From: Candidatus Melainabacteria bacterium 17Bon1m
Lineage (GTDB): Bacteria; Cyanobacteriota; Vampirovibrionia; Obscuribacterales; Obscuribacteraceae
Assembly: GCA_032128875.1 (NCBI GenBank)
Contig: JAVLKG010000001.1
Span: 320,001 to 384,000, forward strand
Length of the DNA: 64,000 bases
Reading direction: 5' to 3'
Each line of letters starts with the position of its first letter. Position 1 is the first letter of the stretch. The notes below the pieces were generated by a model. It made no database searches, was not told where the DNA came from, and saw nothing but the letters and a program-made list of their open reading frames with translations. The translations under genes and the position numbers were made by a program. Positions 18,516 through 31,858 of this stretch are shown here, one piece after another.

Positions 18516-20066
18516 ATGGGTACGCCATCGAACATTTTTGGGCGGGTGCTTTTGAGCAAGAAATATACTTATGACAGTAACCTTCTGCACCATCTAATCA
18601 ATGGTGTGAAGGATTACGCGATTTACGCCCTTGACCCTCAAGGATTGATTGTGACGTGGAACCTCGGCGCAGAACGCGCCAAGGGTTACGCTGCCGAAGA
18701 AATAATCGGCCAGCATTTTTCCAAGTTCTACACACAAGACGCGCGCGAGAGAAAACATCCCGATTTTGAACTCATTCAAGCTAAAGAAAACGGCTCATAT
18801 GAAGAAGAAGGATGGCGTGTTCGCAAGGATGGCAGCCAGTTTTGGGCTCATGTCACCATCACTGCAATATACGACGATAATGGCAAACACATTGGTTTTG
18901 CCAAAGTAACTCGCGATCTCACAGAGAAGAAGGTGGCGCAGGCCGAGAATGTTGAGCAATTACGTCTTTTGCATCAGCATGAAGAAGCCTTTAGACAGGT
19001 CATTCGCTCGGTTAAGGACTACGCAATCTTTATGCTAAGCCCCGAAGGCTATGTGAAAACTTGGAATGCCGGTGCTGAGAAAATCAAAGGGTATAAGGCA
19101 GACGAAATAATCGGCAAGCATTTTTCGATTTTCTATTTAGAAGAAGCGAAGGCAATAAACCACCCTGAATTCGAGTTGAAAGAGGCTGTTAAAAATGGTT
19201 CTTACGAAGAAGAAGGTTGGCGCTTGCGAAAGGATGGCAGTCAATTTTGGGCGAGCGTGACAATCACACCGGTCATAGAGAATGATCAATTGGCTGGTTT
19301 TGTCAAAGTGACGCGCGATCTGACAGAAAGGCGACTGTTCGAGCTTCAGCTTGCAGAGGCTCGTGACGAAGCCATCTTAGCGAATCAGATGAAGACTAAA
19401 TTGGTGGCGAATATAACTCATGAGATACGCACACCGCTTGGTGGCATTATTGGTTTAAGTCAGCTCATTGCAGAAAATGCAGAGATTCCCTCTGACATTC
19501 AAGATTCCGGCAACAAGATTTTTCAAGCTGCCCGCAACTTACTGCGCCTTCTCAATGACTTGCTGGACTACGCAAAGCTCGAGGCCGGCAAAGTGGAGAT
19601 CATCGATGGCCCATTCAAAATCGATGAGATTATCAACGACGTTAAGGGATTGACTGAAAACAAAGCGGAAGAAAAATCTCTTAAGCTTACATCATCGATT
19701 AGTGAAGATCTGCCGAGATTCATCGTCGGCGATAGCGTCAAAATCCGGCAAATCCTTTTAAACCTCGTCCAAAACTCCATCAAGTTCACCGAAGTTGGTG
19801 GCATTGATATTTCTGTTGAACGAGAGGGGGAAACCGTAGTTTTCTCTGTTACTGACACCGGCATTGGTGTTACAGAAACAGTTAAGTCGCGGCTTTTCCA
19901 GCCATTTACCCAGGGGCACGACCCAAGCTACGGCGGCACGGGGCTTGGACTTTCAATCTGTCAGCAGTTTGTGGAATTGATGGGTGGCCAGATCGAAATG
20001 GTCAGCGAAGAAGGTCAAGGCACAAATGTCTCGTTTCGTTTGCCACTGAAAGAGGTGGTTGAATGA
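18516..20066 (+). CDS. Cytoplasmic PAS-PAS histidine kinase
   Basis: Two near-duplicate PAS/PAC domains (DYAI...EEEGWR.RKDGSQFWA), THEIRTPL, GGTGLGL. Confidence 0.95.
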   Translation: MGTPSNIFGRVLLSKKYTYDSNLLHHLINGVKDYAIYALDPQGLIVTWNLGAERAKGYAAEEIIGQHFSKFYTQDARERKHPDFELIQAKENGSYEEEGWRVRKDGSQFWAHVTITAIYDDNGKHIGFAKVTRDLTEKKVAQAENVEQLRLLHQHEEAFRQVIRSVKDYAIFMLSPEGYVKTWNAGAEKIKGYKADEIIGKHFSIFYLEEAKAINHPEFELKEAVKNGSYEEEGWRLRKDGSQFWASVTITPVIENDQLAGFVKVTRDLTERRLFELQLAEARDEAILANQMKTKLVANITHEIRTPLGGIIGLSQLIAENAEIPSDIQDSGNKIFQAARNLLRLLNDLLDYAKLEAGKVEIIDGPFKIDEIINDVKGLTENKAEEKSLKLTSSISEDLPRFIVGDSVKIRQILLNLVQNSIKFTEVGGIDISVEREGETVVFSVTDTGIGVTETVKSRLFQPFTQGHDPSYGGTGLGLSICQQFVELMGGQIEMVSEEGQGTNVSFRLPLKEVVE

Positions 20067-20653
20067 TAAATGATGACTTCAGAATCCTCCTCGTTGAGGA
20101 TGATCCTTTGCTTCAATTCGTATTCGAACAGCAGGTCAAAAAGCTCGGCCTGTCCGTTCATAAAATTGTCGGAAATGGACTTGATGCAGTTGATACCATC
20201 CTCGCAGATAAATATCACCTTGTATTTATGGATGTGCGAATGCCTGGTTTAGACGGTTTGTCTGCTACCGAAAGAATTCGCCGTGCAGAGCGGTTAACCG
20301 GTGCGTATACGCCGATCGTAGGTTTAACCGCCTTTGCTCATCGCGGTAAGTGCTTGCGAGTTGGTATGGACGATTTTCTGCAAAAACCTATCGAGTTGGA
20401 AGACCTTCAAGAAGTTATTGAAAAATGGAAACTCAGTGGCGGTAAAAGACGCGCAAATGAGCAGGCGAACGCAGGCTCGGAGCAAGTCAAAGCGACTACG
20501 AGTCAGCTCAAGACTGCCGAGAAAGCTCCTATCGTCGATCCTCAGGATTTTGAAACAATCAGCCAGAGACTGTCGAACATCAAAGACAAGATTAAACAGC
20601 TTAGAGTGACGTTCGACCTTGACCGTTATGATCAACCCGGACAGCAAAATTGA
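20063..20653 (+). CDS. Response regulator receiver with C-terminal coiled coil
   Basis: LLVEDD, VFMDVRMP, QKP; ATGA overlap with the kinase. Confidence 0.9.
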   Translation: MINDDFRILLVEDDPLLQFVFEQQVKKLGLSVHKIVGNGLDAVDTILADKYHLVFMDVRMPGLDGLSATERIRRAERLTGAYTPIVGLTAFAHRGKCLRVGMDDFLQKPIELEDLQEVIEKWKLSGGKRRANEQANAGSEQVKATTSQLKTAEKAPIVDPQDFETISQRLSNIKDKIKQLRVTFDLDRYDQPGQQN

Positions 20654-20731
20654 GCTGAGAAGTTTCTTTTGCTGATAATGCACATTGGTCTGGGTTGAGC
20701 ACTGACTATTCCTGAGAATGCCACGCCAGAC

Positions 20732-21136
20732 TCAGCATGCTTCTTGTGATGTTGGTTTTGATGTCCAACGAAGCAGCATGTTCTTAAATCGTTCTGGTGA
20801 AATTGGCTTTTCTAAGTAATCATCCATGCCGTCAGCCAAGCATTGTTTTCGGCAGCTTTCCGATGAGTGTGCGGAGAGTCCGATGATTGGTGTTCTGAAG
20901 CCCAACTCTGCTTCGATTTGCCGAATTGCTTGGGTGCATTCGATGCCATCCATTACCGGCATGTTTAAATCCATCAGAACCGCGTCGAAGGGCTTTTGTC
21001 GGTCTTTGAAAAGTGAAATGGCTTCATATCCAGACCTTGCCGGAATTACCTCAAACCCGAATCTATCAGCAAGTGCTTTCACCACCATCTGATTGACCGG
21101 ATTGTCTTCGACGACAAGTATTGCTGCTTTTTCCAT
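20732..21136 (-). CDS. Single-domain response regulator
   Basis: VVEDN, VLMDLNMP, EKP. Confidence 0.92.
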   Translation of the reverse strand: MEKAAILVVEDNPVNQMVVKALADRFGFEVIPARSGYEAISLFKDRQKPFDAVLMDLNMPVMDGIECTQAIRQIEAELGFRTPIIGLSAHSSESCRKQCLADGMDDYLEKPISPERFKNMLLRWTSKPTSQEAC

Positions 21137-22477: not shown

Positions 22478-23449
22478 TTAGATTTCCACAGCTCTAAGCT
22501 CTGCCGCCTTTTCTTCCGGGAGGGTATCGTTGACGAAAGTTCCTGCACCTGATTCGCAACCTGCCAAATACTTGAGCTTTTCTGGGGTTCTGAGCGGAGG
22601 ATAAAACTCAATATGAAAGTGGCATCCGGGCCAGTCTTTTCCGTCTGTTGGTTTTTGATGCATCACCATCATGTAGGGCATTGAAAACTTCCAGAGTGCA
22701 TCGTACTTTTTCAGCAAAGCATTGAGAATTTTTGCAAGATCATCTTGTTCTTCATCGGTGAATTCGCTTATTGCTCCACGGTGCTCTCTTGAATAGACGT
22801 GCACTTCATAAGGATAGCGAGCATAAAACGGAATTATCGCGACGAACATTTCTGTCTCCGCAACAATGCGCTTCTTCTCACTGAACTCGTGCTTAAGTAT
22901 GTCGCAGTGTAAGCAATTGCCGGTTTTTTCTAAATGCTTTGCTTCGTTAATCAGCTCTCGTTCAATACGCGGGGGCAAATAGGAAAACGCATAAATTTGA
23001 CCATGTGGGTGATGGATTGTCACGCCAATTGCCTCACCTTTATTCTCGAAAATGAATACATATTCGATTTCAGGCTTATTGCCTAGTTCTTCGTATCTAT
23101 CTTTCCAGACACGAACGAGGTGCTCAATCTTTTGAAGAGGCATTTCCGCAAGACTCGACTTGTGATCCGACGAATAAAGTACTACTTCGCAGATTCCGAG
23201 TGAGCCTCGAACTGGCATCAAATCAGATCCTTCCACCGCCGGGGCATCGGGCGTACCTCTAAGGCTGGGAAATTTGTTTTCAAAAACAACCATATCGTAG
23301 GTTTGTTCATGAATTTCTGTCGGAAAGCCCCCTTCCGCTGTAGGGCAAAGCGGGCAATACCCTGCTGGAGGTAGAAAGGTGCGGTCTTGCCGGTGAGTAG
23401 CGGTAACCACCCACTCTCCCATAATCGGATTCCATCTCATCTCAGACAT
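22478..23449 (-). CDS. galT: Galactose-1-phosphate uridylyltransferase
   Basis: CPLCP, FENKFP, FENKG, HHPHGQ catalytic motif, AGCE; adjacent to galK. Confidence 0.95.
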   Translation of the reverse strand: MSEMRWNPIMGEWVVTATHRQDRTFLPPAGYCPLCPTAEGGFPTEIHEQTYDMVVFENKFPSLRGTPDAPAVEGSDLMPVRGSLGICEVVLYSSDHKSSLAEMPLQKIEHLVRVWKDRYEELGNKPEIEYVFIFENKGEAIGVTIHHPHGQIYAFSYLPPRIERELINEAKHLEKTGNCLHCDILKHEFSEKKRIVAETEMFVAIIPFYARYPYEVHVYSREHRGAISEFTDEEQDDLAKILNALLKKYDALWKFSMPYMMVMHQKPTDGKDWPGCHFHIEFYPPLRTPEKLKYLAGCESGAGTFVNDTLPEEKAAELRAVEI

Positions 23450-23474
23450 TTACGGATTTCCTATGGACGTCAAA

Positions 23475-23711
23475 TTATTCGAGGATTTTGCCGTGACTTT
23501 CCTCACCAGAGCTATCCTTAGTTTTTGCACTCGATTCTCTGTTGGGTTTCTTTGCGGTGCTGCTGCGCGTTTCTTCGCTGCTATACCCGGACGCGTTGAC
23601 AATGATGCCGGCCGTGCAACCTTCATTGCATTCAAAGTCGTAGAAGATAAGCAGGCGTCCATCTTCTTTCTGGATGCTTCTCTTGATTAGCTTGTGTTTT
23701 TTTGACTTCAT
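23475..23711 (-). CDS. Small protein upstream of galT with KEDGRLLIFY motif
   Basis: ATG with AAAGAG upstream; co-oriented, ends 25 bp before galT. Confidence 0.6.
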   Translation of the reverse strand: MKSKKHKLIKRSIQKEDGRLLIFYDFECNEGCTAGIIVNASGYSSEETRSSTAKKPNRESSAKTKDSSGEESHGKILE

Positions 23712-23897
23712 TCTCTTTACAAGTGTTGCGGGAATTCAATCATACCCCAGCTGATCTATTCTCTCATTTGGGCTTCACCCAAATAGACTTCAAAGTTTTT
23801 GTCTTTATCGAGAATTCGATCATAACGTTGCCACTTCTTCTAAAATCAAAAACCTTGAAGGCACCATATGCAGTGTCTAAGGCGAATGTGAGTCTAT

Positions 23898-23982
23898 AGT
23901 GAAGAAAAGAAGTGAAGAAAGAAGTGATGAAAGAAGTGATGAAAGAAGTGATGAAAGAAGTGATGAAAGAAGTGAAGAAAGA
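23898..23982. repeat. 12-bp purine-rich tandem repeat AGTGA(T/A)GAAAGA, 7 copies
   Basis: Read directly; first copy is 13 bp. Confidence 0.95.
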
Positions 23983-24232
23983 GCGTTTACTCTGCCGTTA
24001 TTCGAAACTGACGCAGGCACACGCTTTATTGCGATCCAAATGAAACAAAAGCTTTGATGTCAGTATAGACGAATTTAAGACGCGAATTGGAACATCTCGC
24101 TAGCAGTGAATCTCTACTAGATTGGGGATTGCAGAACTTCCGGGCACTCGCCACCATTCGAGGTATCACCCAATCTAGGTTTTCAGTTATCCAGAGTTTG
24201 CGCCATACTGGAGATGGAGGATTAGGAAGTCT

Positions 24233-24424
24233 ATGAACAGGAAGAAAACAAAATATTGGTTTGAAAAAATCGATGCAACTTCACCTTTGCCGAATTTTTA
24301 TCCATACAGCGAAGACGCTGCGGGCGCATCTGACGAGCATTTATCAGAAAGCGTACATTCGATAAACGGAGATAACATACTTACTCTGAATAGTTGGAAT
24401 CCAGACGACCAGCTGGCTGTATAG
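24233..24424 (+). CDS. Small hypothetical protein (63 aa)
   Basis: AGGAAG SD, ATG start, followed by an intrinsic terminator. Confidence 0.5.
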   Translation: MNRKKTKYWFEKIDATSPLPNFYPYSEDAAGASDEHLSESVHSINGDNILTLNSWNPDDQLAV

Positions 24425-24464
24425 TTAATTTCATAGGTTTATCCCTACCCCAGGGAGAAAAGGA

Positions 24465-24489
24465 GGAGTGCATAGCGCTCCTTTTTTTT
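24465..24489 (+). terminator. Rho-independent terminator
   Basis: GGAGTGC-ATA-GCGCTCC followed by T8. Confidence 0.8.
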
Positions 24490-24526
24490 GCACTATTTAT
24501 TCAGTGCGCAGTATTGATTTGCCGGA

Positions 24527-24551
24527 GGAACTTTGGATAACTTGTGCGGTC
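24527..24551 (+). promoter_or_regulatory. Putative ECF promoter GGAAC-N17-GTC
   Basis: Exact motif directly after a terminator, with no ORF downstream on this strand. Confidence 0.6.
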
Positions 24552-24557
24552 ATACCA

Positions 24558-24665
24558 TTCGGAAAAAACGAAATATCTAAAACACTGTGAGAAGCACAGA
24601 TTTGCGTTTCGATCGACGCCGAAACGCAGAAAAGTGAAGGGCCGCTTAGAGCAAGCGGCTCTTTG
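24558..24665 (+). ncRNA. Candidate three-hairpin small RNA
   Basis: Promoter motif; hairpins CTGTG/CACAG, TGCGTTTCG/CGAAACGCA, GGGCCGCTT/AAGCGGCTC+TTT. Confidence 0.5.
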
Positions 24666-24675
24666 CTGCTTTAAG

Positions 24676-25278
24676 TCATGCAGTTAATTCGTCTTCTCGC
24701 AAATCTTGCGCAAGTCGCTCGGCATTTGCAAGTTGCCATCTCACCGATGATGTTGACATGTCTCCTGTCAAAACAATACGCGGTGCTGGAGAATCCTTTA
24801 TCAGGCAAGGAGTGGACGATATCCTCTCTTTCTGTGCGAGTTGCGGACTCTTCAATACGTCGATTACTGACAGCGAATATTTATTCTTGTCACCGCCAAA
24901 TAAGCGTGCGACGTTGGTCAGCAGTTGTTCGTCAGGAGTGCCGCAAACAAAAAGCAATAGGTTGACCTTTTCACCGCTCGAAAAAACGTTGTCTCTGATT
25001 GAAACGCTGACGTCTTTTCCGAGCTTCTCCAACCAGACAATAAGCATGTCGATGCTGAAGCGGTCTACCCTACCTTGAACGACATCTGATATTCGCGGTT
25101 GTCCAACACCCAGGACTTCTGCCGCTTGGCCTTGCGTCCAGCCCTTTTCACGGATCAATTCGGCAATAGCTGCCATTAATTCCGCGCGCAGCACTAAATT
25201 GGACGCAGCGTAATCATCTTGCGAAGAGTGATTTTTTTCGCGAGATCGATTTCCCTTCATTGCGTTACCCGATTTCAC
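24676..25278 (-). CDS. XRE-family HTH regulator fused to a KaiB/SasA-like domain
   Basis: WTQGQAAEVLGVGQPRISDVVQGRVDRFSIDML (HTH); LLLFV...VIDVLKSPQLAQKERISSTPCLIKDSPAPRIVLTGDMS (KaiB-like). Confidence 0.88.
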   Translation of the reverse strand: MKSGNAMKGNRSREKNHSSQDDYAASNLVLRAELMAAIAELIREKGWTQGQAAEVLGVGQPRISDVVQGRVDRFSIDMLIVWLEKLGKDVSVSIRDNVFSSGEKVNLLLFVCGTPDEQLLTNVARLFGGDKNKYSLSVIDVLKSPQLAQKERISSTPCLIKDSPAPRIVLTGDMSTSSVRWQLANAERLAQDLREDELTA

Positions 25279-25396
25279 ACTTCATATACTTAATTATATA
25301 TGTGCATCCTCTGTGGGCTATCCCTCGTCTGGTATATAAAAGATTAAATAGCTAGATGAGCAAGCAGTGGACAACTTGCTTGTATCTGACTGACCG

Positions 25397-25414
25397 TATA
25401 GAATTAATTCTATA
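25397..25414. promoter_or_regulatory. Perfect 18-bp palindrome TATAGAATTAATTCTATA, candidate operator
   Basis: In the divergent promoter region between the XRE-KaiB gene and a pseudo-receiver. Confidence 0.45.
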
Positions 25415-25453
25415 AAGTGATAATTTGATTGGCATATCTATTTGGGTGACTAT

Positions 25454-25882
25454 ATGGATAAGCAACCAAGTTTGATGAATCGCATATTGCTGGCCCACGA
25501 CCCGCAGAAAATCGGTTTTTTGCTCGATTCGCTGACGGGTTTTGAACTTGTCCCGGCTGCGACGGTCAAGGAAGCCGAAAGGCTCATCACTGAGAATGGA
25601 ATCAACCTGTTTATTATTGGAATTCATTTTGATGATTCCCGCGCTCTCCAGCTAATAACGGACATTCGTCTCGACGAAAAGCATAAGACGACACCCATCG
25701 TGGTTGTTCGTCTCTCTCAGTCAGAGCACACAGAGATGCTTAGAATGACGATGGACACTCTGATTAAGCTTCACATCGTCGACGAGTTTATCGAGATTGA
25801 AAATCCAGGACAGAATCAAAAGAAACTTTTTCGCAAACTCGTAGAAAAGATACTTAATCAGGCAGAGGCTATAAGCCAATAA
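25454..25882 (+). CDS. Atypical receiver-like protein (no phospho-Asp)
   Basis: RILLAHD, ATVKEA, NLFIIGIHFDDSRAL, TPIVVV. Confidence 0.75.
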   Translation: MDKQPSLMNRILLAHDPQKIGFLLDSLTGFELVPAATVKEAERLITENGINLFIIGIHFDDSRALQLITDIRLDEKHKTTPIVVVRLSQSEHTEMLRMTMDTLIKLHIVDEFIEIENPGQNQKKLFRKLVEKILNQAEAISQ

Positions 25883-26026
25883 TGGGCTGCGCAGTTTAGA
25901 TTAGCTCCAATGTTGTCTGCCGCGCAGCAGGAAGCGAAAAACACAAGAGAGACGTTTTTAAGCGTCTCTCCTCTTTGGTTGCTCACTACTTAGTTAGCTC
26001 GGGGCGTGCTGGTTTGGCTGGCGCCG

Positions 26027-26413
26027 TCACTCATTTTGCCCCTTTTTTTGACCTTCGTTTTCACCCTGGCTTTCTTTGGTTAAGCATTTGCCGAGATACA
26101 TCTTCAGTGCTTCTACGTGCTCACGGTCTGAAGTTCGGATCTTATCGAAAAGGTCTCTCAGCTCAGCACAGGGTTGTGCGTCCAATATGTATTTGTCATA
26201 TGCCTGAAGTGCTTTGGACTTTTCGTTAAGCACCATAACTACGTCGAATTGAAGGTCGGATAGCGGGAAATATCCAGTTCCTTTATCCGCTCTTACTCCT
26301 TCCTTTCCCTGACCATTGCTTTTATTTTGCTGTCCTTGATTTTGTTGATTCTGAGTTTCTTGGTTTTGTTTTCCTTGATCTTGTGCCTTGTTTTCTTTCA
26401 TAGAACTAGCCAT
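26027..26413 (-). CDS. Gln/Asn-rich small ferritin-like stress protein
   Basis: LNEKSKALQAYDKYILDAQ...LFDKIRTSDREHVEALK; GAGG SD before ATG 26413. Confidence 0.75.
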   Translation of the reverse strand: MASSMKENKAQDQGKQNQETQNQQNQGQQNKSNGQGKEGVRADKGTGYFPLSDLQFDVVMVLNEKSKALQAYDKYILDAQPCAELRDLFDKIRTSDREHVEALKMYLGKCLTKESQGENEGQKKGQNE

Positions 26414-26791
26414 CTCGCTTACCTCATAAAATCGATTCGCATTATGAGGAGAGTCAGTATTTGACTGATTGTTCCTCATGTATCCAACAGTGTTGAGCCT
26501 TTTGATAGCTTGTTACGAATCAAAATCCTTGTGTCTTGATCCGGTCATAGTGTGGCGACCATTGCGTTGAATGAGTGTGCCACAGGTCGCATCAGCACGT
26601 CCCCATTTGCAGTGTGCTCTTCTAAGTCCTGTTCCGGACTTATGCTTTCTACATCTAATCGTTGGACTTTTGTTTGTTTCTAAGTGAATAGCACCAAGTT
26701 GTGGAACAATAATGTTAGTCTCGAAAGCCGATGGCCCGTGCGCCTTCTGTCTAGGCGGCAAAATAGAAATGTGTGGTGGAGGAAACTATAA

Positions 26792-27163
26792 GTGAAACTG
26801 AATCCAACAAAATCTGCGGAATTATTTGATGTGCTAGAGGCAATAGGCACCGCTAGTAACTTGGACTCGGAAATTGAAAAACAACAAAAATTGGTCGCCT
26901 CTATGTCGGAATCATCGTTTTCATCAGGCGAGCGTGGTGATGCTTTGTTCTACCTTGCGCGTTTGTATTTTCAAAAGCAATCATTTCAGCAGGCAAAGAA
27001 TTGTGCTGTAGAAGCAGTAGGTTTAAGACGTTTGTTTTACGGAAAGAAGGCGAAAGAATTTCTTGATGCTGTAACTCTGGCGCGATTAATTAACGATGAA
27101 ATTGAGAAAACTGAGCCACCGAAAAGGCGGCGAAGAGGCCGCGTTAAGTCTCCTAGCATTTGA
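26792..27163 (+). CDS. Small TPR-like protein
   Basis: ALFYLARLYFQKQSFQQAKNCAVEAV; GGAGG SD. Confidence 0.65.
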   Translation: MKLNPTKSAELFDVLEAIGTASNLDSEIEKQQKLVASMSESSFSSGERGDALFYLARLYFQKQSFQQAKNCAVEAVGLRRLFYGKKAKEFLDAVTLARLINDEIEKTEPPKRRRRGRVKSPSI

Positions 27164-27181
27164 GTTTTCTTAAAGTAGAAC

Positions 27182-27973
27182 TCAAGTAATTTTTTGCGCT
27201 GCCTCGTTGGACTCCGCGCCAGAGTTGTTGTCTCTGTTCGCGGAGTCATGCGGAGGGGAGAATATGCTCGGCTCTTTTCCAAACAACTTTTCGAAATTTT
27301 CCGCGATGGCATGATAACAGCCGCAACTTGCGGCTTCTAATCCTTCACGATCTTTTACCGTGACAATGCCTCTGACATATGAGATTAGCCCCGCTTTTTG
27401 CAAGGTCATTGCCGCAACGTTCACCGCCGGTCTGCGAACTCCAAGCATTTGTCCCAGGAACTCCTGCGTTAATGGAAAATTCCTTCTATCCATTCTGTCG
27501 TGGCAAAATATCAACCAGCGTGCACATCTTGAGTCAACATTGTGCGAACGGTTGCAAGCCGCGTTTTGAGCAGTTTGATTGAAGAGCGATTGAGCATACT
27601 TGTTCATTAACAGCCCAAATGTCGGAAGGTCTTTCATAAACTGTTTGAAGTCTACGGCGGGCATTCTTAGAGTCGGACCCGGTATCTGGCAAAAACACAT
27701 CCCTTCCATTGTCTCTGCGCCGAATATTATTGGCACACCCACGACACCTTCCTTCCCTACTGTTGCAACTTCAATGAATTCGTTTTCTTCAACGTATGCA
27801 ACTATCGATTCAACGCCACTTTCCGGAAAGTACACAAAATCCAATGGTTGTCCCGATTCGAAAATAGGATACTTTGTATTGAGGCTCAGGTATTCCAAAT
27901 GTGGTAGCACCGCTTCTAATTCTTCTGGTGGCAGTCTACGTAGAATGTGATTTTCAATTTTTTCAATAACCAT
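27182..27973 (-). CDS. Crp/Fnr-family transcriptional regulator
   Basis: VYFPESG, VGKEGVVG, RCARWL, LTQEFLGQMLGVRRPAV. Confidence 0.93.
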   Translation of the reverse strand: MVIEKIENHILRRLPPEELEAVLPHLEYLSLNTKYPIFESGQPLDFVYFPESGVESIVAYVEENEFIEVATVGKEGVVGVPIIFGAETMEGMCFCQIPGPTLRMPAVDFKQFMKDLPTFGLLMNKYAQSLFNQTAQNAACNRSHNVDSRCARWLIFCHDRMDRRNFPLTQEFLGQMLGVRRPAVNVAAMTLQKAGLISYVRGIVTVKDREGLEAASCGCYHAIAENFEKLFGKEPSIFSPPHDSANRDNNSGAESNEAAQKIT

Positions 27974-28015
27974 CAGTATCCCTCGGGCTTATGTTTGGTA
28001 GCGGTCATATAGGAA

Positions 28016-28040
28016 GACTGCGAAATGATCAGACGGTTTC
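28016..28040 (-). promoter_or_regulatory. Putative ECF promoter variant GAAAC-N17-GTC
   Basis: Upstream of the Crp gene. Confidence 0.5.
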
Positions 28041-28076
28041 TGAATGTCACATGTGTTTACTTCCAAGTAGAAAGAC

Positions 28077-28100
28077 AAAAAGACGTCACAGGACGTCTTT
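28077..28100. terminator. Bidirectional terminator
   Basis: AAAAGACGTC-ACAG-GACGTCTTTT. Confidence 0.75.
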
Positions 28101-28122
28101 TCATCGAGATATCTAAGTAGCT

Positions 28123-28428
28123 CTACGCCGCTTTCTTTGCCTTTGCTTTTCCACCTTTCCTTCCAGCTTCTACCTTCTGCTGGTGAGATGATGATTTTGC
28201 TTTCCTACCGGTCTTTGGCTTGGTGGATGCTTTTTTTGAACTTGTCTTTTTGGCAGTGGTTTTTTTCTGCCCCGAACCTCCGGCTTTTTTGCCGCCACCA
28301 TCTTGCTTATTGACCGTCGCCCACGCCCTACTTTTCGCTTCTTTCTCGCTTACACCCTTCTCCTCGTAACTTTCTTCTATGTGTTTTGCTTTTCGTTCTT
28401 GTTTGTCCGTATATTTACTTCCTGGCAT
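28123..28428 (-). CDS. Basic general-stress protein with KGG motif
   Basis: YTDKQERKAKHIEESY...RAWATVNKQDGGG; EAGRKGG; GGAGG SD. Confidence 0.85.
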   Translation of the reverse strand: MPGSKYTDKQERKAKHIEESYEEKGVSEKEAKSRAWATVNKQDGGGKKAGGSGQKKTTAKKTSSKKASTKPKTGRKAKSSSHQQKVEAGRKGGKAKAKKAA

Positions 28429-28455
28429 ATTCAAACCTCCATGATCAGATTTGAA

Positions 28456-28480
28456 GACCGTTGCTCAGTTTGTCGGTTCC
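28456..28480 (-). promoter_or_regulatory. Putative ECF promoter GGAAC-N17-GTC
   Basis: Upstream of the KGG protein gene. Confidence 0.65.
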
Positions 28481-28566
28481 AATGTGAATTGGCCATATCT
28501 CGCGCCCTTAAGTTGTTGGGTATGCACCCGCGTAAGGGCAGATTTACTTGTAATCGTGCTTGTTGC

Positions 28567-28690
28567 AAAAATAGTAGGCGACTGGGTTAGCCCCAGTCGC
28601 CTTGAAGAACCGGAAACTTCTTATCAGTAGTTTCCCCGTTCATAGTTGTGGCTTTCATAGCCATTTTCTTTCTCTATTCTCGTATCGATA
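28567..28690 (-). ncRNA. Candidate three-hairpin small RNA (contains a 25-aa ORF, 28587-28664)
   Basis: Promoter at 28698-28722; hairpins TGGCT/AGCCA, GGAAACT/AGTTTCC, AGGCGACTGGG/CCCAGTCGCCT followed by a T-rich tail. Confidence 0.5.
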
Positions 28691-28697
28691 ATATGAT

Positions 28698-28722
28698 GAC
28701 GTTAGAAGCATCCTTCAGTTCC
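28698..28722 (-). promoter_or_regulatory. Putative ECF promoter GGAAC-N17-GTC
   Basis: Exact motif just downstream of the hemerythrin stop. Confidence 0.6.
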
Positions 28723-28746
28723 AAAAAACGTGCAAATTCTTAGCTG

Positions 28747-29259
28747 CTAACTAGCTTTTCTTTGTCGGATGGCGCTACGTCCTTTGCTCGTGTTCATCAT
28801 TCGCATTTTTTTCTTCTTGACGGTTTCAGCCATCATTTCTAGATCTTCGTCCGAATCCTTCAACTTCGGAAGCAGCTCGTTCTCTTCTTCTTTGACGTGA
28901 TGCTCGATCAACTCTTTGAGTACTGTGACTTTAGCCTTGCAGTTTTCTTCAGAACCATCCATTCTCGACATTTCTCGAAGAATGCCTTTGACTACATGAT
29001 GCTCTTCATAAGCTTCTTTAGCTCCGTCTTCTTCTTCCACCATTAATGGAGGATAAACAATTTGCTCCTCAAGAGTGGCATGAATTGTTAATTCAGTGAT
29101 TATTTTCTCCATTAAGCTTTTGCGCTGACGGCTAGTACGTGCGCCCTCGAATTCAGCAAAAAGTGCTTCGACTTTTCTGTGATCTGCCTTGAGCATAGAG
29201 ATTATTTCGGGTTCGCCCATCATTGCACTGACGGCATCGCCAACACTCTTTACGTTCAT
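28747..29259 (-). CDS. Hemerythrin/HHE cation-binding protein
   Basis: LKADH, HATLEEQIVYP, EEH, HHVKEEENELLP; AAGGAG SD. Confidence 0.9.
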   Translation of the reverse strand: MNVKSVGDAVSAMMGEPEIISMLKADHRKVEALFAEFEGARTSRQRKSLMEKIITELTIHATLEEQIVYPPLMVEEEDGAKEAYEEHHVVKGILREMSRMDGSEENCKAKVTVLKELIEHHVKEEENELLPKLKDSDEDLEMMAETVKKKKMRMMNTSKGRSAIRQRKAS

Positions 29260-29289
29260 ATGATTTCTCCTTTCAGTGTCTTTAGAAAT

Positions 29290-29314
29290 GACCTGAATAG
29301 GACCTTTTAGTTCC
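29290..29314 (-). promoter_or_regulatory. Putative ECF promoter GGAAC-N17-GTC
   Basis: Upstream of the hemerythrin gene. Confidence 0.65.
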
Positions 29315-29650
29315 AGAAAATGGCGATTTTGTTCAGTCAGGCTTTGCGCAAATGAACCGGATTTTCGCTCCAATTGAAGTTTCCTCTTCTAGCCCTTGTG
29401 TCTGGATCCGGTCACTTGCAAAAACGGTTAAGAGTAATGGTGATGCACCATAGGCGGTGGCGCGCGCTTAAAGAGAACTGTTCTGTGTCCGGATGGCGTA
29501 TCAACAAGGCTCTCAAGGTCCAGCGGTACCGCACAAAACGCAATATTTGCTCACGCGGGATATAGCCATAAGTATATCGATTGCCTTATTATCGTCACTT
29601 AATTTTGGCCGCTGTGTCGCAGTTACCTCTCGTACATAAGGGTTTTACTT

Positions 29651-31858
29651 ATGACTAGTTTGTTTATTTCCCGACAGACAACCAGAGCGCTTTCTTTTCT
29701 TTTTGCGCTAACCTTTTCACTTCAAACTTCTGCCTCTTATGCCAAAGATTTGCCGAGTGTCGGAGATTGGGATAAAGGCACCCAAGCCGCAGGTGAGCCG
29801 CCTGCCAACGCCGGAAATGGCGGTGAATTGCACCAGACCAATGTCAACCTGCCTCCGTTGACTACTGATTTGGGGACACCCATCTCCGATGACCAGAATT
29901 CGCTAAAAGCAGGTTCTCGAGGTCCGACTTTAATGGAGGACATGCCTGCAAGGGAAAAAATATTCCACTTCGACCATGAGCGAATTCCTGAAAGGGTGGT
30001 GCATGCAAGAGGTTTTGGTGCTCATGGTTTTTTTGAAAATTACAGACCCTTAAGCGATGTGACCAAAGCTGACCTCTTTCAAAAAGCCGGGGAAAAGACA
30101 CCTGTTTTTGTAAGATTCTCGACGGTAATTGGTCAAAAGGGTTCGTTCGATTTGGCTCGCGATGTTCGTGGTTTTGCGACAAAATTTTATACAAAGCAGG
30201 GCAACTGGGATCTTGTCGGCAACAACATTCCAGTCTTCTTTATTCAAGATGGCGTGAAATTTCCAGATCTGGTTCATGCAGCTAAGCCCGAGCCTCAGCA
30301 TGAAATTCCACAGGCGGCGACAGCGCACGATAACCTTTGGGACTTCATATCGCTTATGCCCGAATCAATGCACATGATTATGTGGGCAATGTCAGATCGC
30401 GCTATTCCGCGCTCTTACAGATTTATGGAAGGTTTCGGTGTTCACACATTCCGTATGGTGAATGCACAGGGCAAGAGCACTTTCGTGAAGTTTCACTGGA
30501 AGCCAAAACTTGGTATGCAGTCAGTTCTCTGGAATGAAGCCGTCAAAATCAATGGAGCCGATCCAGACTTTCACAGGAGAGATTTGTACGAAGCCATTGA
30601 GCGAGGCGACTATCCTGAGTGGGAACTAGGCATGCAACTCTTCGATGAAGAGTTTGCTCGCAAGTTTGACTTCGATGTTTTGGATGCAACCAAAGATATC
30701 CCTGAAGAGCTGATACCTGTGCAAAAGGTCGGAAGGCTGGTTTTAAATCGAAATGCAGACAACTTCTTTGCGGAGACCGAGCAGGTTGCTTTTTGTACTC
30801 AGAACATTGTTCCAGGTATCGATTTCACCAACGATCCTCTTCTGCAGTTGCGCAACTTCTCTTATTTAGATACGCAGTTAAAGAGGCTGGGATCACCTAA
30901 TTTCACTCAGTTGCCCATCAATGCTCCCAAATGTCCATTTTTCAACTTTCAGCAAGATGGACATATGGCGATGAATAATCCTAAAGGGCGGGTGAATTAT
31001 GAACCTAATTCTTGGGGTGGTCCGAGAGAAGTTCCGGAAGCCGGTCTTCAATCATTTCCCGAACCGATGCAGGGCGTGAAGGAAAGAAAGCGATCGGAAA
31101 CTTTTGCCGATCATTACAGCCAAGCAAGACAGTTTTATATTAGCCAGACACCTACGGAGCAGGGACATATCGCTGATGCCCTGGTCTTCGAGCTGTCTAA
31201 AGTGAAGAAGGCGTTGATTCGAGAAAGAATGGTAGCTCACCTAGAAAATATTGATAAGGATCTTGCGGGCAAAGTAGCTACAGGGCTCGGTATGAAAAAT
31301 CTGCCTGCACCTGCGAAGGCTGCAAGACCAACAAAGATGGATCTGCCGGCGTCTCCCAAGCTAAGCATTATTCTCAACGGTCCTAAGAGCTTTAAGGGAC
31401 GCAAGTTGGGCGTTGTGCTCACCGATGGAGCAGACGCAAAAGTATTCAACGGGCTAAAAGCTGCTGTTGCTGCTGAAGGCGCCGCACTCGAGGTGGTGGC
31501 TCCCACTATTGGCGGTGTCAACCTCAGCGATGGATCGCACGTCAACGCAGACCATAAGATTGATGGTGCACCATCGGTTCTGTTTGATGCCGTAGCGCTT
31601 GTGTTGTCGCAGCCAGGGGCGGAAAAGCTTGCTGGTGAATCAACCGCAAAAGACTTTGTCTCTGATGCTTATGCACACTGCAAGTTCATCGGCTTCACTG
31701 CTCCAGCAATGATTTTGTTTGACAAAGCAGGATTGAGCAAGTCTGTTGATGCAGGGTTTGTTCCTCTGGGGCAAGGAAAAGGCGCCAATGACTTCATCGC
31801 CTCTTGCAGGGGAGTTAGACTCTGGGCTCGTGAACCCAAGGTGAAGATGTCCAGATAA
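29651..31858 (+). CDS. katE: Large-subunit catalase (HPII type) with apparent signal peptide
   Basis: [30 protein letters not shown] heme ligand, C-terminal GATase/DJ-1-like domain. Confidence 0.95.

Follow-up and report, generated by a model that had tools for sequence, protein, structure and literature searches.

SasA, a KaiC-docking histidine kinase of cyanobacteria (PDB entries 6X61 and 1T4Y), carries an N-terminal KaiB-like thioredoxin domain, and the F122/D123 pair in the B-loop of KaiC is reported to be required for the binding of both KaiB and SasA (10.1101/2020.06.17.158394). The elongated KaiB, or KaiB-4, of cyanobacteria is described as having an N-terminal extension of about 150 amino acids (aa) of unknown function, and for its KaiB-4 domain a stable fold-switched state was predicted and also shown by nuclear magnetic resonance (NMR) (PMC10808063; 10.1101/075291). 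KaiB is also bound by other proteins: in cyanobacteria the CikA pseudo-receiver is reported to compete with KaiA for a site on it (PMC7766417), and KaiB binding has likewise been reported for the PAS domains of KidA (PMC9478674). An output route of another kind has been concluded to exist for KaiBC systems (10.1101/075291), and how the KaiBC timers found outside photosynthetic cyanobacteria relay their state to genes is an open question. Here, a gene joining an XRE-type DNA-binding half (HTH_37) to a KaiB-like half is described. It lies in a stretch of 64,000 nucleotides, hereafter the window, from Candidatus Melainabacteria bacterium 17Bon1m (GCA_032128875.1, contig JAVLKG010000001.1, positions 320,001 to 384,000).

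The analysis identified the product of this gene as a real XRE-KaiB regulator, whose gene makes up a conserved module of two genes together with a receiver-fold neighbour. Readout of the fusion by KaiC in the window genome is plausible, at best facultative, and unproven. The explanation that we favour, tentatively and at somewhat short of an even chance, is a local XRE regulator with a KaiB-derived docking domain, for which the CI domain of KaiC would be the likeliest partner in the window genome through a facultative link. An earlier reading of this DNA, made from the sequence alone (the sequence-only reading), had pointed to no characterised fusion of this kind, and no description of a helix-turn-helix (HTH)-KaiB fusion was found in the literature, subscription journals and supplements lying outside the search. 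No paper on the Kai proteins of the Obscuribacterales/Melainabacteria lineage was found either. As far as the search reached, the XRE-KaiB fusion is undescribed until now.

The Fusion Gene and Its Protein Family

The two domains named in the sequence-only reading, an N-terminal HTH of the HigA/HTH_37 type and a C-terminal KaiB pattern, were both recovered by Pfam in the 200-aa product, whose translation contains the peptide quoted in that reading. HTH_37 was matched at aa 24–95 (75.2 bits, E-value 3.6e-21) and KaiB (PF07689) at aa 108–178 (50.5 bits, E-value 1.7e-13, gathering cutoff 27), the second match spanning positions 1–74 of the 82 in the model; in the scan of the whole genome the KaiB match reached 52.4 bits. 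The protein therefore belongs to both Pfam domain families.

A search of 5.8 billion clustered proteins returned 40 proteins, 39 of which share the combination of HTH_37 and KaiB at identities of 51–100%. The domain architecture that the sequence-only reading had singled out is thus that of a family of 39 proteins, present in 8 of the 104 genomes described below. The alignment of the 39 sequences has 32 invariant columns distributed across both halves, among them the KaiB-type T-P-x-L and G-D motifs. Since 39 homologs keep both domains and the invariant columns fall in both halves, the open reading frame (ORF) is real and not a chance frame. The sole database name found for proteins of this family was "predicted XRE-type DNA-binding protein". 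The tail that follows W181 comprises 20 residues in the window fusion versus 39–65 in most homologs, where it is charged. Directly after the stop codon comes a terminator-like hairpin, which marks the short C-terminus of the window protein as a natural gene end.

The KaiB-Like Half and Its Predicted Fold

The structure of the fusion was predicted with AlphaFold2 from the family alignment. The model had a mean predicted local distance difference test (pLDDT) score of 87.4, with values of 90–97 across aa 101–170. In the KaiB-like half the predicted elements were beta1 (105–111), alpha1 (117–125), beta2 (134–140), alpha2 (145–150), beta3 (158–163), beta4 (168–171) and alpha3 (176–199). The half is accordingly modelled as thioredoxin-like, as in KaiB in its fold-switched form and SasA's N-terminal domain, and not as the ground-state KaiB fold. 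This agrees, at the level of prediction, with the KaiC-binding-competent shape that the sequence-only reading had raised. As modelled, the long alpha3 would probably hold the domain in a fixed thioredoxin-like fold.

When the model was compared with the PDB by Foldseek, the top match of the KaiB-like half was 5jwo_B, fold-switched KaiB with KaiC-CI (E-value 5.4e-6, template modelling (TM) score to target 0.68), followed by 5jyt (fold-switched KaiB, NMR), 4kun (Legionella KaiB), 6x61 (SasA-N with CI) and 8fwj_M (Rhodobacter sphaeroides KaiB on KaiC). By sequence, phmmer against the PDB placed this half closest to KaiB (1vgl_A, E-value 9.2e-10), with weaker matches to 8ubh_A (3.4e-6) and to SasA-N (5.7e-5 for 6x61_B, and 3.6e-4). 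Its identity to the KaiB of the same genome was 43% over 70 aa.

The KaiB-like domain alone was also compared with 1.84 billion representative proteins, where only six relatives were found at an E-value of 1e-10 or below. Three of them (P0022, P0037 and P0051) combine HTH_37 and KaiB, and P0050 (119 aa) resembles a fragment of the fusion family. Ordinary KaiBs of about 100 aa matched at 1e-9 and weaker, and the domain consequently forms a small branch of its own within the KaiB family. Other KaiB-domain architectures seen in this library (P0082, P0098, P0159 and P0052–P0054) were receiver+KaiB fusions, namely the first three, and tandem KaiB-KaiB proteins.

Many thioredoxins were also present among the Foldseek matches of the fusion. 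Together with the predicted fold, they bring up the explanation that the domain has no partner and works as a thioredoxin-fold oligomerisation or thiol redox-sensing module of an ordinary XRE repressor. Two cysteines bear on this, Cys112 at the end of beta1 and Cys158, which follows the T-P in the loop preceding beta3 (codons at window positions 24945 and 24807), which presumably correspond to about the active-site and cis-Pro regions of the thioredoxin fold and would be expected to lie close together. All 39 family members have a Cys at one position or the other (both in 18, only Cys112 in 13, only Cys158 in 8). Neither residue is invariant, however, as 8 of the 39 proteins lack Cys112 and 13 lack Cys158, and the absence of proteins with neither is weak evidence, about 2.7 being expected by chance; moreover, the T. 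elongatus KaiB 1vgl has T-P-C-L as well, and the CxxC motif is absent from the KaiB-like domain. Catalase and hemerythrin genes lie 3–6 kb away in the window, and a catalase gene directly downstream of the fusion in the locus of another genome (L013), but this neighbourhood is confined to two of the nine loci. The long charged alpha3 tail of most homologs could form a coiled coil, and the survival of the domain in genomes without KaiC would suit a partner-less module; such a module would explain neither the enrichment of KaiC nor the conserved pseudo-receiver neighbour reported below. On this evidence the explanation is distinctly unlikely, and a thiol-based input of the fusion is possible, though weakly supported.

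A conserved Cys112–Cys158 disulfide was considered separately and rejected, both residues being present in just 18 of the 39 members.

Kai Genes and Distribution of the Fusion

The window assembly comprises 7.55 Mb in 35 contigs and is 93% complete. The statement of the sequence-only reading that no kaiC is present in the window was correct, though the gene was found on contig 2. There, genes for KaiB (104 aa), KaiC (505 aa) and a PAS-HisKA kinase follow each other in a row, as an operon, at about 170760–173260 (locus L001, 1163–3682), the fusion being on contig 1. The KaiC of this genome passes both NCBIfam KaiC equivalogs (675.9 vs 408 and 614.8 vs 546.25), and the genome, whose content in this respect the sequence-only reading had left to be looked up, does not lack KaiC. 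In an alignment of 10 KaiC orthologs G107, F109, S420 and T421 were invariant and D110 nearly so. The window-genome protein keeps the S-T phosphorylation pair in CII and a G-x-F-D stretch in CI, which, matched by eye, suggests a counterpart of the cyanobacterial B-loop. Neither KaiA nor a photosynthetic reaction-centre protein was found in the window genome.

The fusion and KaiC were counted in 104 genomes from a single family; the records in it that bear names are Obscuribacterales/Melainabacteria. The full-length fusion was detected in eight of them, from seven genera (G000, G005, G018, G025, G101, G102, G110 and G126), always as a single copy, and KaiC orthologs were detected in 21. KaiC was present in 5/8 genomes with the fusion and in 16/96 of the others (one-sided Fisher p = 0.008). 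The enrichment was also seen by genus (4/7 fusion genera vs 5/30 others, p = 0.045) and among assemblies of at least 5.5 Mb (5/7 fusion genomes vs 13/56 others, p = 0.017); the genomes of the family are related and not independent, so these Fisher values overstate the association between fusion and KaiC, to the disadvantage of a KaiC link.

Outside the family, a scan of one genome per species (185,579 species) gave full-length matches in five records only, all within the eight genomes already counted. The public fusion-bearing records of the family are titled Candidatus Obscuribacteraceae, Obscuribacterales and Melainabacteria. The titles of two public records of metagenome-assembled genomes, "Planktothrix sp." for L010 (G018) and "Oculatellaceae cyanobacterium" for L013 (G025), do not fit their taxonomic placement and look mislabelled. 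In a scan of metagenomes with patterns placed in the HTH, 79 of the 80 kept loci matched the HTH part only, and one full-length locus was obtained (L115).

Docking of the KaiB-like domain on KaiC is plausible in the light of its predicted fold, its homology, the conserved CI loop and the co-occurrence. In a prediction of the complex of KaiC-CI (aa 1–245, 10-row alignment) with the KaiB-like domain (aa 100–200, 39-row alignment), a control in which an unrelated protein took the place of KaiC scored too close to the real pair for the result to weigh on either side.

The Divergent Receiver-Fold Neighbour

The gene divergent from the fusion encodes a protein of 142 aa in which Pfam gave no Response_reg match at an E-value of 0.01 or below, the only match being VpsR at 17 bits, under its cutoff. 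AlphaFold2 predicted a (beta-alpha)5 receiver fold with five strand-helix units (pLDDT 86.4), and Foldseek returned 248 PDB matches at an E-value of 0.001 or below; among the matches listed almost all were receiver domains. Gly56, which ends the strand 52–56 (beta3), aligns with the Asp of the standard receiver at L012. As Gly56 takes the place of the phospho-acceptor Asp and Response_reg was not matched, the 142-aa protein is a pseudo-receiver.

A divergent receiver-fold gene adjoins the fusion in seven of the nine readable loci (window, G005, G018, G025, G101, G102 and G110). The two remaining loci have a PAS protein (G126) and a 101-aa ORF of no assigned family (metagenome contig L115). The acceptor position of the seven neighbours is occupied by Gly in G000, G005, G018, G025 and G102, by Glu in G101 and by Asp in G110, whose neighbour (L012) is a standard receiver (86.3 bits). 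At L011, the only genome locus lacking a receiver neighbour, the divergent gene (2026–2670) encodes a PAS-domain protein and is followed by a small XRE-like protein. In the window, positions 18516–21136 hold a PAS-PAS histidine kinase and then two single-domain response regulators, which the receiver neighbour at L012 matches.

By analogy with CikA, the pseudo-receiver is a candidate ligand of the KaiB-like domain, and this opens an explanation in which KaiC plays no part: the regulator would control the pseudo-receiver gene, and the pseudo-receiver would dock on the KaiB-like domain and switch the regulator, as a closed feedback pair. The receiver-fold neighbour accompanies the fusion in 7/9 loci, also in the KaiC-less G101 and G102, and is thus a steadier companion than KaiC (5/8); the adjacency is, however, equally explained by the pseudo-receiver being merely a regulated gene. 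The replacement of the phospho-acceptor Asp in six of the seven neighbours would fit a docking partner, but the neighbours are just 22–35% identical between subgroups and the one at L012 keeps its Asp. Single-chain receiver-KaiB proteins of other lineages (P0082, P0098 and P0159, one of them with His at the acceptor position) set a precedent for the pairing, as does the PAS protein at L011, given the binding of KaiB reported for the PAS domains of KidA (PMC9478674). By contrast, Foldseek placed the window neighbour with ordinary receivers, and neither a CikA nor a KaiA pseudo-receiver was among the matches listed. Receiver genes are, besides, very common: a profile of the neighbours, whose alignment held one genuine receiver, matched ordinary receivers in 104/104 family genomes, with up to 35 in each, and is for that reason uninformative on co-occurrence. 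The feedback pair would also leave the KaiC enrichment unexplained, and it is considered possible, if on the unlikely side. Docking of KaiC and of the pseudo-receiver are not mutually exclusive, and the facultative KaiC link of the favoured explanation could coexist with such a pair.

Origin of the HTH Half

The HTH half superposed on 2a6c_A with a TM score to target of 0.84 and a root-mean-square deviation of 0.9 over 67 columns, and 2o38_B matched as well. Its recognition-helix motif Q60 P61 R62 I63 S64 (QPRIS) is invariant in the fusion family. The closest stand-alone relatives were proteins of about 110 aa in sister genomes, whose genes directly follow a Gp49/HigB-like toxin gene of about 110 aa in four of five loci, Pfam confirming Gp49 in both of those that were scanned; the HigA kinship proposed in the sequence-only reading is thereby strengthened. 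At L090, L091, L094 and L096, all from sister genomes, Gp49 toxin and HTH_37 antitoxin form pairs of overlapping genes. Several genomes of the family have more than one HTH_37-only match.

This origin, and weak NCBIfam matches of the fusion to the HipB and Y4mF antitoxins, all under the cutoff, would be in line with a HigA-type antitoxin that acquired a domain and still serves a toxin encoded elsewhere. Such a role is highly improbable: no toxin-like gene was detected upstream or downstream of the fusion at any of the nine loci, and each genome that holds the fusion has a single copy (8/8), divergent from a receiver-fold gene in an arrangement that is conserved.

A Candidate Operator Between the Two Genes

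The start codons of the fusion and of the pseudo-receiver gene are 163 bp apart. The perfect 18-bp palindrome found in this region would be the operator through which the XRE half controls its own gene and the pseudo-receiver gene. The TATA-N10-TATA pattern was present in 7/8 genome loci, with a degenerate copy in the eighth, and its centre lay 110–142 bp upstream of the fusion start in seven of the eight. An intergenic palindrome with at most one mismatch was found in 5/8 loci; shuffling the regions yields one as good in 23–86 of 2000 cases per locus. The centre varies, and the outer TATA is conserved together with the bases next to it; these conserved ends fit the invariant recognition helix of the fusion family. 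At the metagenome contig L115, neither the receiver neighbour nor the palindrome was found.

A second, AT-rich motif with a TATAAT box lies close to the fusion start, and in other loci it is again present 12–30 bp upstream of that start. At L011 and L009 the start-proximal motif shares, as read from the sequences, the right half-site of the palindrome of the same locus. It is likely a core promoter and possibly a second operator. A promoter scan of the intergenic region found no more sites than in shuffled sequences.

Three runs labelled RNA-Seq, from one sample, contained the whole 3.8-kb stretch in contigs, the longest records being 137–156 kb. Over window positions 23400–27200 these runs (X2–X4) had even depth and their contigs crossed both strands and the intergenic regions. 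They resemble DNA libraries and may hold DNA, and they show neither transcription, strand nor start site.

A Proposed Mechanism for the Module

In the favoured explanation, the fusion would be a local XRE-type transcription factor, probably autoregulated, whose HTH, presumably as a dimer, would bind the palindrome between the two genes. The KaiB-derived domain would be the signal-input half, held in the thioredoxin-like (fold-switched) shape, the one that KaiB and the N-terminal domain of SasA take when docked on the CI ring of KaiC, and would offer a protein-docking surface that modulates DNA binding. In the window genome the likeliest partner of this surface would be the CI domain of the resident KaiC, as for the KaiB-like domain of SasA, and docking would then couple the state of the KaiBC timer to pseudo-receiver expression, with no kinase-response regulator relay in between. 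Because relatives that have no KaiC retain the module, the KaiC link would be facultative. What the fusion binds, be it the palindrome or a protein, is inferred here, as are its autoregulation and dimerisation.

Several observations weigh against readout by KaiC. Three of the eight fusion genomes, G101 (90% complete), G102 (95%) and G126 (65%), gave no KaiC match at an E-value of 1e-5 or below and no KaiB domain besides the fusion. They contain only weak single-domain matches to the KaiC-ATPase family, such as the window genome also has besides its KaiC. In the genera g49 (G101) and g50 (G102), KaiC was found in 0/2 genomes each, the other genome of each genus lacking it too. The KaiB-like domain of the three genomes is, by eye, conserved as well as the rest; a function independent of KaiC must therefore exist, and KaiC readout cannot be the sole or obligate function of the fusion. 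Moreover, with up to 3 mismatches allowed, the 7.55-Mb genome has the 18-bp palindrome just once, and G005 has its own version once at up to 2; no second copy was found within these limits, nor any sign of the site at kaiBC or at the catalase gene. With a single palindrome per genome, the fusion is more readily seen as regulating two genes locally than as passing clock output to a stress regulon. The palindrome contains a -10-like TAGAAT, and promoter-like matches were at chance level (2 found, 2.1 expected).

The domain itself gives further reason for caution. The KaiB-like half misses the NCBIfam KaiB equivalogs NF006798 and TIGR02654 (35.0 vs 110 and 31.9 vs 145.3), although the stand-alone KaiB encoded beside kaiC in the window genome misses them as well (56.3 vs 110 and 55 vs 145.3), which indicates that these cutoffs are tuned to cyanobacterial KaiB. 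Invariant motifs of the fusion family, such as R-W-Q-L in alpha3, remained unaligned with KaiB in the PDB comparisons. Additionally, AlphaFold2 with default settings is reported to give the fold-switched state even for T. elongatus KaiB, which favours the ground state (PMC10808063), and the predicted fold is therefore no proof of a locked state.

The sequence-only reading had proposed a one-component factor read out directly by a KaiC-family ATPase. The domains, the predicted fold, the presence of KaiC and the co-occurrence speak for this proposal, whereas an obligate readout does not hold in view of the three KaiC-less genomes among the eight and of the single palindrome. A complete one-component KaiBC output is conceivable along the same lines. 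The fold-locked KaiB domain would, like SasA, compete with free KaiB for the CI ring of phosphorylated KaiC, and binding of the palindrome would follow the KaiC cycle without kinase or response regulator. The pseudo-receiver would act as a CikA-like second ligand, and a two-protein switch would remain where KaiC was lost. Such a module would amount to a minimal circuit for clock output in a sister lineage of cyanobacteria that is not photosynthetic. This fuller version is unlikely, and the local regulator with a facultative KaiC link is kept as the favoured explanation.

If that explanation is true, a transcription factor carrying its own KaiB domain would be the shortest possible KaiBC output route. 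With the fusion, a KaiB domain has also come to light that is retained where KaiC is absent, and the recurring pairing of KaiB with a receiver or pseudo-receiver, as neighbours or in a single chain, bears likewise on the roles of the KaiB fold outside clocks. The reach of these findings is limited by the small size of the fusion family, known so far only from uncultured Obscuribacteraceae.

Features of the Locus and Surrounding Genes

The features of the locus are collected in Table 1.

Table 1. Features of the XRE-KaiB locus, with positions in the window and the basis of each assignment.
Feature	Position	Strand	Basis and remarks
XRE(HTH_37)-KaiB-domain fusion gene	24676..25278	-	200 aa, GTG start, stop codon within the coordinates; ORF, Pfam domains and 39 homologs
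HTH_37 DNA-binding domain	24994..25209	-	aa 24-95; 75.2 bits vs cutoff 27; helix-turn-helix fold by structural match
KaiB-like domain	24745..24957	-	Pfam, genome scan, AlphaFold2 secondary structure, Foldseek, phmmer against the PDB
C-terminal helix alpha3	24682..24753	-	aa 176-199, family motif S-x-R-W-Q-L; AlphaFold2 model and alignment
Terminator-like hairpin (intrinsic type)	24641..24659	-	8-pair stem with 5 GC pairs, T-rich tail; directly after the fusion stop codon
AT-rich motif near the fusion start	25283..25304		TATAAT box and imperfect palindrome with 14-nt arms, 79% complementary
Perfect 18-bp palindrome TATAGAATTAATTCTATA, candidate operator	25397..25414		divergent intergenic region; TATA-N10-TATA, script search
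Single-domain receiver-fold protein gene	25454..25882	+	ATG start giving 142 aa, with TTG at 25442 as an alternative; divergent from the fusion

Downstream of the two-gene module, window positions 26027–31858 encode, in this order, a Q/N-rich protein of 150 aa that belongs to no family, a Crp/Fnr-type regulator (27182–27973), a K/G-rich protein of 103 aa (28123–28434), a hemerythrin-domain protein (28747–29373) and a large catalase (29651–31858). The stress cluster in which the sequence-only reading had set the fusion holds for the window and for L013, where the K/G-rich protein and the catalase also lie beside the fusion; it does not extend to the other loci. On the other side of the fusion, a short ORF of repeated E-R-S-D units occupies positions 23899–24057, and the contigs of all four sequencing runs break at 23946 within the repeat.

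Comparison with Known Systems

Judged by the features that define each of them, the fusion is neither a circadian KaiB nor a SasA nor a HigA antitoxin. With KaiB it shares the motif V-I-D-V-L-x-x-P-x-x-A-x-x-x-x-I-x-x-T-P-x-L...G-D-x-S and a predicted thioredoxin-like topology, as in fold-switched KaiB (5JWO and 5JYT) and the fold-switched-type KaiB of Legionella pneumophila (4KUN). KaiB, however, stands alone, with about 100 aa and its gene next to kaiC, whereas the KaiB domain of the fusion makes up the C-terminal half of a DNA-binding protein of 200 aa. The fusion also remains under the NCBIfam KaiB equivalog cutoffs, has an alpha3 of its own (S-x-R-W-Q-L) with a long charged tail in most homologs, and is present in three genomes without KaiC.

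As in SasA, a KaiB-like thioredoxin-fold domain and an output domain are joined in one chain, a design by which docking on KaiC-CI would drive the output, and SasA-N with CI was among the top structural matches. The output of the fusion is a helix-turn-helix that would touch DNA directly, in contrast to SasA; Pfam detected no HisKA/HATPase, and there is no RpaA-type relay. The domain order is reversed, the KaiB-like part being C-terminal in the fusion. By sequence this part is nearer to KaiB than to SasA-N, and on the SasA-type model PRK09303, whose cutoff is 342, the score was 31.6.

The fusion resembles the HigA-type XRE antitoxins in its HTH half, which superposes on 2A6C (NE_1354) and also resembles 2O38. 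It differs from them in having no toxin partner at nine loci, in its added KaiB domain and in the divergent pseudo-receiver that is present instead. Finally, the elongated KaiB/KaiB-4 proteins (KaiB-TV-4, 8UBH) likewise carry a KaiB domain at the C-terminus of a longer protein, and 8ubh was among the matches of the fusion. In the fusion, by contrast, the N-terminal half is an identifiable HTH_37, and the hosts are non-photosynthetic Obscuribacteraceae versus the Nostocales/Oscillatoriophycideae of the elongated KaiBs.

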